A stretch of DNA of 64,000 bases, taken from the sequence record PQ330092, one strand, 5' to 3'. Shown here one piece after another: positions 12,131 to 12,607 of the stretch; the stretch's first letter is position 1; each line of letters begins with the position of its first letter. Source of the DNA: Escherichia phage JP4. The translations under genes and the position numbers were made by a program. The notes beneath the pieces are model-generated. The model was not told the origin of the DNA. It made no database searches and saw nothing but the letters and a program-made list of their open reading frames with translations.

Positions 12131-12607
12131 ATGATTCATGAACACCGAGGTAATCTGTTTGAATTATTCAGTACTGTTACAGATGATAAAACAGCAATAC
12201 ATATAATTGCTCATGGTTGTAACGCACAGGGTAAAATGGGTTCAGGTTTTGCAAAAGAGCTAAGAAATCGTTACCCAATGGCATATGATGATTATAAAGC
12301 ATATGAAAAGGAAATGGGATTTCTTAGAATTGGACAAATTGCATATTCAGCAATTAACGATAATTTGATTATTGCAAACTGTATTACCCAAAAAATGTAC
12401 GGTAATGACGGTGCTAAATATGTCAGTTATGATGCAATCGACGATGTGTTCAAACATCTAAATTATTTTTGTAAAGTTGATCGAGATGTTCATGTACACT
12501 TCCCGAAAATTGGAGCCGATTTGGGCGGCGGTAACTGGAACGTTATCAAAGAAATCATTGATCACCGACTGGTCAATGCAGAAAAACACTTATACATTCT
12601 AAAATAA
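12131..12607 (+). CDS. Macro domain protein (TARG1/DarG-like ADP-ribose hydrolase fold)
   Basis: HGCNAQGKMGSGFAKELRNRYP matches the N.VN..G.MG.GIA......P signature of TARG1/DarG-type macro domains; GGAG SD. Confidence 0.5.
   Translation: MIHEHRGNLFELFSTVTDDKTAIHIIAHGCNAQGKMGSGFAKELRNRYPMAYDDYKAYEKEMGFLRIGQIAYSAINDNLIIANCITQKMYGNDGAKYVSYDAIDDVFKHLNYFCKVDRDVHVHFPKIGADLGGGNWNVIKEIIDHRLVNAEKHLYILK

Follow-up and report, generated by a model that had tools for sequence, protein, structure and literature searches.

DarT2 toxins of Escherichia coli (E. coli) attach ADP-ribose to thymine in single-stranded DNA and thereby block phage replication (PMC13309987). E. coli hosts carry active DarTG2 systems, and phage countermeasures to them have been described in T4 and PhiKZ. 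In T4, a clean deletion of tk.4 makes the phage DarTG2-sensitive, and transposon insertions in the gene disappear specifically on E. coli that expresses DarTG2; it was named adfM, for anti-DarT factor Macrodomain (bioRxiv 10.1101/2025.11.20.689424). PhiKZ gp104, also called AdfM, removes DarT2-made ADP-ribose from DNA, neutralizes DarT2 toxicity and protects chimalliviruses, and mutation of its conserved catalytic-site asparagine in loop 1 lowers activity (PMC13309987). A cellular enzyme, SCO6735 of Streptomyces coelicolor, lacks the catalytic Lys of TARG1 and DarG and the Asp of TARG1, yet still removes thymidine-linked ADP-ribose from DNA very efficiently; it also hydrolyzes protein ADP-ribosylation and can rescue both E. 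coli and S. coelicolor when DarT is toxic to them (PMC9411070). Here we describe a relative of these proteins encoded by Escherichia phage JP4 (record PQ330092), within a stretch of 64,000 nucleotides referred to as the window. The gene lies at positions 12131-12607 on the plus strand, starts with ATG and encodes a stand-alone macrodomain of 158 residues, the ortholog of gp544 of phage 121Q. By analogy with the systems above, the protein is, on balance, likely to be an ADP-ribosylglycohydrolase, orphan and antitoxin-like, that counteracts ADP-ribosylation of DNA by DarT2-type toxins, a functional analog of AdfM.

A conserved macrodomain of the ALC1-like class

The window belongs to a Rak2-like jumbo coliphage of the genus Asteriusvirus. 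The 3 kb tested (positions 11000-14000) are 99.8-99.9% identical to phages UB, PBECO4 and phAPEC6 and 99.1% identical to 121Q. The open reading frame (ORF), which spans exactly the coordinates first proposed for it, is a real, conserved gene and not a chance ORF, as 167 homologs of its product were found (best E-value 3.7e-102). It is under purifying selection, with a ratio of nonsynonymous to synonymous substitution rates (dN/dS) of 0.10-0.22 against three diverged phages, 121Q, UE-S1 and KP13-7, at dS values of up to about 1.4-1.8. RefSeq already annotates 121Q gp544 as 'macro domain-containing protein', with the note 'Appr-1-p processing domain protein', so the original prediction of a macrodomain, right in fold and class, was not a new observation. 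Records annotated with Pharokka label the same gene 'phosphatase', a name inherited from PHROG 335 with no test behind it.

Sequence comparison and a predicted structure confirm that the window protein is a macrodomain of the ALC1-like (TARG1/DarG/SCO6735) class, apart from the MacroD, PARG and macroH2A types. The assignment follows from matches to PDB sequences, an AlphaFold model, the ranking of structural relatives and library matches to DarG models only. In a phmmer search of PDB sequences, BT1257 (E-value 8e-16), SCO6735 (8e-12), yeast Poa1p (9e-7) and Thermus DarG (2e-3) were recovered, and the protein matches PHROG 335 at 1.1e-45. An AlphaFold2 model built with 48 homologs reached a predicted local distance difference test score (pLDDT) of 94.6 and a predicted template modeling score (pTM) of 0.91. 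The model has a three-layer α/β/α fold, and Foldseek matched it to many solved macrodomains with probability 1.00 and template modeling (TM) scores of 0.69-0.84. BT1257 ranked first (2fg1, TM 0.84), followed by Poa1p, SCO6735 (0.77), DarG and TARG1 (~0.75), with MacroD and coronavirus X-domains below them; these best solved matches bear out the TARG1/DarG-like character first proposed for the protein.

The PADLOC and NCBIfam libraries returned DarG models only (E-values 1.4e-10 and 3.9e-8), at 32.9 bits against an equivalog cutoff of 250. Both matches cover the macrodomain part alone, namely positions 16-136 of 329 in the PADLOC model and 18-139 of 338 in the NCBIfam model. The window protein is not itself a DarG, because its 158 residues include no C-terminal DarT-binding domain and no toxin gene is adjacent; neither the ORF list of the window nor the 121Q annotation has an ADP-ribosyltransferase (ART) gene next to the macro gene. 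Profile and structure searches had been suggested as a check on the fold, and they diverged. The Pfam Macro model (PF01661) scored the protein at 16.4 bits, below its gathering cutoff of 22, which T4 Tk.4 (27.7 bits) and PhiKZ gp104 (30.1 bits) both pass, whereas AlphaFold, Foldseek and the PDB sequence matches give a macro fold. The Pfam score reflects a limit of model sensitivity and is no evidence against the fold. Taken as sole arbiter, Pfam would wrongly reject a macrodomain that the other searches and the model support.

Active-site residues and a candidate anti-DarT2 function

Conserved residues were read from a family alignment of the 48 homologs, which extend down to 38% identity, and from a reference alignment of the window protein with T4 Tk.4, BT1257, SCO6735, TARG1, two DarG proteins and PhiKZ gp104. 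The BT1257, SCO6735 and DarG sequences were transcribed from HMMER alignments. For TARG1 we used what we take to be its sequence, the K84/D125 numbering of which agrees with PMC9411070. Invariant throughout the family are His28, Gly29, Asn31, Gly39, Tyr55, Asn83, Thr86, Gln87, Gly91, Tyr100, Pro125, Gly128 and Leu131. The glycine-rich loop 1, predicted to bind ADP-ribose, spans His28-Ala41 (HGCNAQGKMGSGFA; positions 12212-12253, plus strand), and its Asn31 aligns with Asn27 of SCO6735. The peptide HGCNAQGKMGSGFAKELRNRYP (residues 28-49), which had been singled out as a TARG1/DarG glycine-rich-loop signature, does align column for column with loop 1 of TARG1 (HCISEDCRMGAGIA...) and of DarG (NTVNTVGVMGKGVA...).

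At the strand end Asn83-Cys-Ile-Thr-Gln87 (12377-12391, plus strand), Gln87 occupies the position of TARG1 Lys84, DarG Lys80 and SCO6735 Gln85. The DarG motif NFPTK, which carries the catalytic Lys (Taq K80), is replaced here by NCITQ. The equivalence of SCO6735 Gln85 to these two lysines has been described, and in that enzyme Q85A loses activity and N27S nearly abolishes it (PMC9411070). A long mobile loop comes next, Lys88-Tyr100 (12392-12430, plus strand), with the nearly invariant family consensus YG.DG.KYVSYDA. Twelve residues separate Gln87 from Tyr100, compared with 14 in BT1257, 13 in SCO6735 and 8 in T4 Tk.4, TARG1, DarG and PhiKZ AdfM. Residues 91-100, inside this loop, form the lowest-confidence block of the model (pLDDT 80). 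The long loop of SCO6735 has been proposed to act as a DNA clamp (PMC9411070). Loop 2, the putative diphosphate-binding loop, spans Pro125-Trp136 (PKIGADLGGGNW; 12503-12538, plus strand) and places Gly132 at the position of TARG1 Asp125. Asp130, in the unusual GADLGGG form of this loop, varies across the family. As judged from the alignments, the window protein carries the SCO6735-type set of Asn31, Gln87 and a long mobile loop.

The original prediction had expected the catalytic Lys of TARG1 and DarG together with the TARG1 Asp, and had taken their absence as grounds for rejection. Both residues are indeed missing, with Gln87 and Gly132 at the aligned positions, and the covalent lysine mechanism of TARG1 cannot apply because of this replacement. 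As grounds for rejecting an ADP-ribose eraser, however, the rule is too narrow, because SCO6735 and T4 AdfM, which are active, also have Gln at the Lys position.

Several comparisons connect the window protein to the phage proteins with anti-DarT2 activity. PHROG 335 is common to the window protein, T4 Tk.4 (E-value 1.3e-65) and PhiKZ gp104 (8.2e-43). In pairwise BLASTP, the window protein matches T4 Tk.4 at 2e-12; the macro gene and tk.4 are reciprocal unique matches between the genomes, the macro gene being the sole Tk.4 match in 121Q. The top match in BFVD, a collection of predicted viral structures, is a Tk.4 protein. Relatives were found by tblastn in 2,124 of 50,697 phage records (~4%), the T4 tk.4 locus among them. 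In a rough, un-bootstrapped neighbor-joining tree, the window clade groups with BT1257 and SCO6735, then with T4 Tk.4 and then with TARG1, while DarG and PhiKZ AdfM stand apart. Phage macrodomain erasers, proven or putative, come in at least three flavors: Lys-type (PhiKZ), short-loop Gln (T4) and long-loop Gln (the window clade).

What is established for the window protein comprises its fold and class, which of its residues are conserved, that its gene is under purifying selection and that it is homologous to proteins of proven anti-DarT2 action. That it is catalytically active, acts on thymine in DNA and plays this role in vivo is what we infer by analogy. It is very likely that the protein is an active ADP-ribosyl hydrolase of some kind. 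In the proposed mechanism, a host DarT2-type toxin would ADP-ribosylate thymine in single-stranded phage DNA and block replication. Loops 1 and 2 of the window protein would take up the ADP-ribose, its distal ribose being held in position by Asn31 and Gln87, and the long conserved loop may grip the DNA. The N-glycosidic bond between base and ribose would then be hydrolyzed by the water-mediated, lysine-independent route proposed for SCO6735, releasing free ADP-ribose and restoring replicable DNA. A counter-defense against DarTG-like systems had already been put forward for this gene; the T4 Tk.4 and PhiKZ gp104 experiments, on members of the same PHROG, lend that idea substance, with the function of the window protein itself assigned by homology. 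Both the fold annotation and the anti-DarT idea are already in the literature, and no new category is opened here.

Competing substrates and roles

A number of observations weigh against an anti-DarT2 function. Identity to the proven proteins is low, at 27-30% for T4 Tk.4, 27% for SCO6735 and 18% for PhiKZ AdfM, and enzymatic removal of ADP-ribose by T4 AdfM was deduced by its authors rather than demonstrated biochemically (10.1101/2025.11.20.689424). The reader domain of ALC1, which is non-catalytic, typically has Gln at the catalytic position too (PMC9411070), so Gln87 is no proof of activity. TARG1-like enzymes also act on proteins, O-acetyl-ADP-ribose and uracil in RNA (PMC9411070 for part of this range), so thymine in DNA is one candidate substrate of the window protein among several. 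Val25 of SCO6735 is replaced by Gly29 and the DNA-contacting Lys34 by Ser38. Gly29 is invariant in the phage clade, and T4 Tk.4 has Gly there too; Val or Ile at this position has been called SCO6735-specific (PMC9411070). The Gly weakens membership in the SCO6735 type but not the mechanism, because the role proposed for Val25 is through its backbone. In addition, 121Q encodes a Sir2-family protein, gp476 (Pfam SIR2, 4.6e-20), with a NUDT16-like Nudix gene (1.3e-18) directly after it. Finally, our literature search on Asteriusviruses found no paper that discusses or tests the macro gene, and it is not discussed in the jumbo-phage NAD+ systems paper (PMC11662467) or the Sharanji genome paper (PMC11895373).

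The Sir2 gene underlies the main rival, which we consider unlikely. The window protein would be a housekeeping partner of phage NAD-consuming enzymes, deacylating Sir2-made O-acetyl-ADP-ribose or reversing Sir2 ADP-ribosylation, with phage Nudix hydrolases degrading the released ADP-ribose. Such a cycle could draw on the gp476 pair and on another Nudix gene (ORF end 11300) ~0.8 kb upstream of the macro gene in conserved synteny. TARG1 (OARD1) and Poa1p deacylate O-acyl-ADP-ribose, and Poa1p is the second-best structural match in Foldseek. However, ~38 kb separates the Sir2 gene from the macro gene, the neighboring Nudix has no specific ADP-ribose pyrophosphatase signature, and bacterial sirtuin-linked macrodomains are MacroD-type, not ALC1-like. 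T4 Tk.4, moreover, acts against DarTG2, and to our knowledge T4 carries no Sir2 gene. It is likewise improbable that the protein erases ADP-ribose from substrates other than thymine, either proteins or RNA (for example uracil-linked or phosphate-end modifications), written by other host ART toxins or defenses or by unrecognized phage ARTs. SCO6735 and TARG1 do hydrolyze protein and uracil-linked RNA ADP-ribosylation, and a metagenomic T4-like homolog lies ~2 kb from an ADPrib_exo_Tox gene. Set against this, both phage homologs tested so far act on DarT2. The genome of 121Q, in the full annotation of which the whole-genome context was assessed, has no annotated ART, NADAR or NAD-salvage gene, and tblastn with T4 AdfN (30.3) and the C-terminal 501 residues of Alt gave no match in it; little weight can be put on this negative, since ARTs are fast-diverging and the majority of the ORFs are hypothetical.

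The annotation labels 'phosphatase' and 'Appr-1-p processing' suggest instead that the protein, like Poa1p, dephosphorylates ADP-ribose-1''-phosphate left over from RNA repair or splicing, a role we find very improbable. Poa1p is significant in both sequence and structure searches, and the phage encodes an RNA ligase, a polynucleotide kinase and a CCA-adding enzyme. Yet T4-type Pnkp/Rnl repair makes no Appr>p, no Tpt1/KptA is annotated in the phage, and the 'phosphatase' label comes from the PHROG 335 name. In an alignment on a partial Poa1p sequence, moreover, Ser30 of Poa1p aligns with Lys35, and Poa1p has Ser at the invariant Gln87. A non-catalytic, ALC1-like reader or sequestering protein, binding targets or ADP-ribose-derived signals without hydrolysis, is also highly unlikely. 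It would explain the Gln common to ALC1 homologs at the catalytic position and the absence of an acid/base residue at the TARG1 Asp125 position. But SCO6735, with the same Gln/Asn set, is a highly active hydrolase, and the invariance of Asn31, Gln87 and the loop in 48 diverged sequences fits catalysis better than binding. In another unlikely reading, the long-loop Gln-type clade of Rak2-like jumbo phages may be more than a simple copy of AdfM. It could be an eraser of its own kind, with other substrates or a wider range of them, or an arm of a phage ADP-ribose cycle with Sir2 and the NUDT16-like Nudix, and the nearly invariant YG.DG.KYVSYDA loop would be its specificity element. Candidate substrates could include uracil-linked ADP-ribose on RNA, ADP-ribosylated proteins and DarT-like marks that T4 AdfM and DarG cannot handle.

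If the window protein is an anti-DarT2 factor, as we favor, AdfM counter-defense extends to a third structural flavor and to non-nucleus-forming jumbo coliphages. The modest twist is the combination of SCO6735-like chemistry with a conserved long loop in such a phage. The same function would suggest lysine-independent, SCO6735-like chemistry in phage erasers and would predict that therapeutic phages of the PBECO4/121Q type are naturally DarTG2-resistant. By the tblastn count given above, ~4% of sequenced phage genomes would be predicted to carry a relative.

Gene neighborhood and comparison with known systems

A Shine-Dalgarno sequence, GGAG, is read at positions 12122-12125 on the plus strand, 6 nucleotides before the ATG, and a ribosome-binding site is annotated at the same place in UE-S1. 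Upstream of it, between the preceding small ORF and the macro gene, a scan located a terminator-like hairpin with a T-rich tail (12090-12120, plus strand). The hairpin proper, 12090-12113, has a 10-bp stem and a 4-nucleotide loop, folds as RNA at -16 kcal/mol and is scored as a minus-strand terminator as well. It is kept in 121Q, in UE-S1 and in KP13-7, a Klebsiella jumbo phage in which both strands of the inner stem are changed with pairing preserved. The gene had been credited with its own upstream terminator and Shine-Dalgarno sequence, and both are present, but the terminator does not imply an independent unit. Only 17 nucleotides lie between the hairpin and the ATG, too few to hold a promoter. 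The hairpin terminates or stabilizes the upstream message and does not define an independent transcription unit for the macro gene; because the upstream gene ends at the hairpin, transcription of the macro gene must pass through it or come from farther upstream. A motif tried as a recurring regulatory element around the gene, AAGGACT, is not enriched (9 matches, 6.7 expected).

Upstream on the plus strand lie genes for a CCA-adding tRNA nucleotidyltransferase (9678-10790), a generic Nudix hydrolase (10899-11300), which three small ORFs separate from the macro gene, and a glutaredoxin (11302-11550). The order CCA-adding enzyme, Nudix, glutaredoxin, two small ORFs and macro gene is kept in the Klebsiella Alcyoneusvirus KP13-7, whose macro protein is 63% identical to that of the window; synteny of the macro gene thus holds across Asteriusvirus and Alcyoneusvirus. 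The neighboring Nudix was considered as a specific ADP-ribose pyrophosphatase and rejected, as it gave generic Nudix matches only, far below all NCBIfam cutoffs. A bacterial toxin–antitoxin operon context was sought for three divergent homologs (~40% identity). None lies in such an operon; all three are on phage contigs, within replication and early regions of T4-like or ERF/DnaB type. On one metagenomic T4-like contig (GCA_040959485.1; L017:6001-9478), a 40%-identical homolog adjoins gp59 and gp32 and lies ~2 kb upstream of the ADPrib_exo_Tox gene, which is ModA/ModB-like.

The Sir2 and NUDT16-like Nudix pair is found at 220175-221475 of the 121Q record (L005:20175-21475), ~27 kb before the window start, and could write and process ADP-ribose or O-acetyl-ADP-ribose. 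Elsewhere in the window, a second, MutT-like Nudix of 154 residues (46790-47254, minus strand; 121Q gp578) sits amid genes for the tail sheath and other virion structural proteins; in all, 121Q encodes a MazG and at least three Nudix proteins. A 110-residue ORF at 7745-8077 (plus strand) corresponds to 121Q gp533, annotated as an HPF/RaiA-family ribosome-associated (hibernation) factor, a translation-related gene that is unusual for a phage, and 121Q also has an IF3-like factor and many tRNAs. A giant ORF of 3,333 residues (52538-62539, minus strand) is 121Q gp582, a 'virion structural protein'. The long tail-fiber ORF (35232-41621, minus strand) has 2,129 residues against ~1,841 in 121Q gp571, a length gap in an otherwise ~99% identical genome that is likely host-range-determining. 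Another 121Q gene, gp205 (L008:4809-5483), encodes a T7-like protein kinase. The T7 kinase is reported to disarm defenses including DarTG1 (PMC11895373; Nature 2026, PMC13645617), so the phage may have separate ways of countering DarTG1 and DarTG2.

Among described proteins, SCO6735 and BT1257 of Bacteroides thetaiotaomicron are closest to the window protein in both sequence and structure. All are ALC1-like and Gln-type, with Gln for the catalytic Lys, the loop-1 Asn, a long mobile loop and no TARG1 Asp, and all are orphans outside toxin–antitoxin pairs. The two differ from the window protein in being cellular and only 27-28% identical, and their loop is unrelated (HGMKTGSKGAPVRYEA compared with YG.DG.KYVSYDA in the window clade). 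BT1257, unlike SCO6735, has no known function. Human TARG1 (OARD1) shares the ALC1-like class and fold, and its loops 1 and 2 can be aligned; it is 20% identical to the window protein and differs in its Lys84/Asp125 dyad.

T4 Tk.4 is likewise a phage stand-alone macrodomain, of ~155 residues, and has in common with the window protein the HGCN loop 1, the N..TQ strand and the P[KR]IGA.[LI]G.GNW loop 2. It retrieves PDB relatives in the same order, and its DarG-model matches are equally strong. Unlike the window protein, it has 8 residues rather than the conserved 12 in the loop that follows the Gln, and its gene lies in the tk-vs region of T4 rather than in a CCA-Nudix-glutaredoxin block. T4 also has AdfN, of which tblastn found no homolog in 121Q. 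PhiKZ gp104 shares with the window protein its occurrence as a jumbo-phage stand-alone macrodomain, PHROG 335, the fold class and the conserved loop-1 Asn. It is Lys-type (FPTK), as is DarG, and matches the DarG model at 4e-39 compared with 1e-10 for the window protein. PhiKZ AdfM is imported into the phage nucleus, whereas Asteriusviruses have no ChmA shell protein. DarG2 is set apart from the window protein by its C-terminal DarT-binding domain, its operon with darT and its FPTK Lys.

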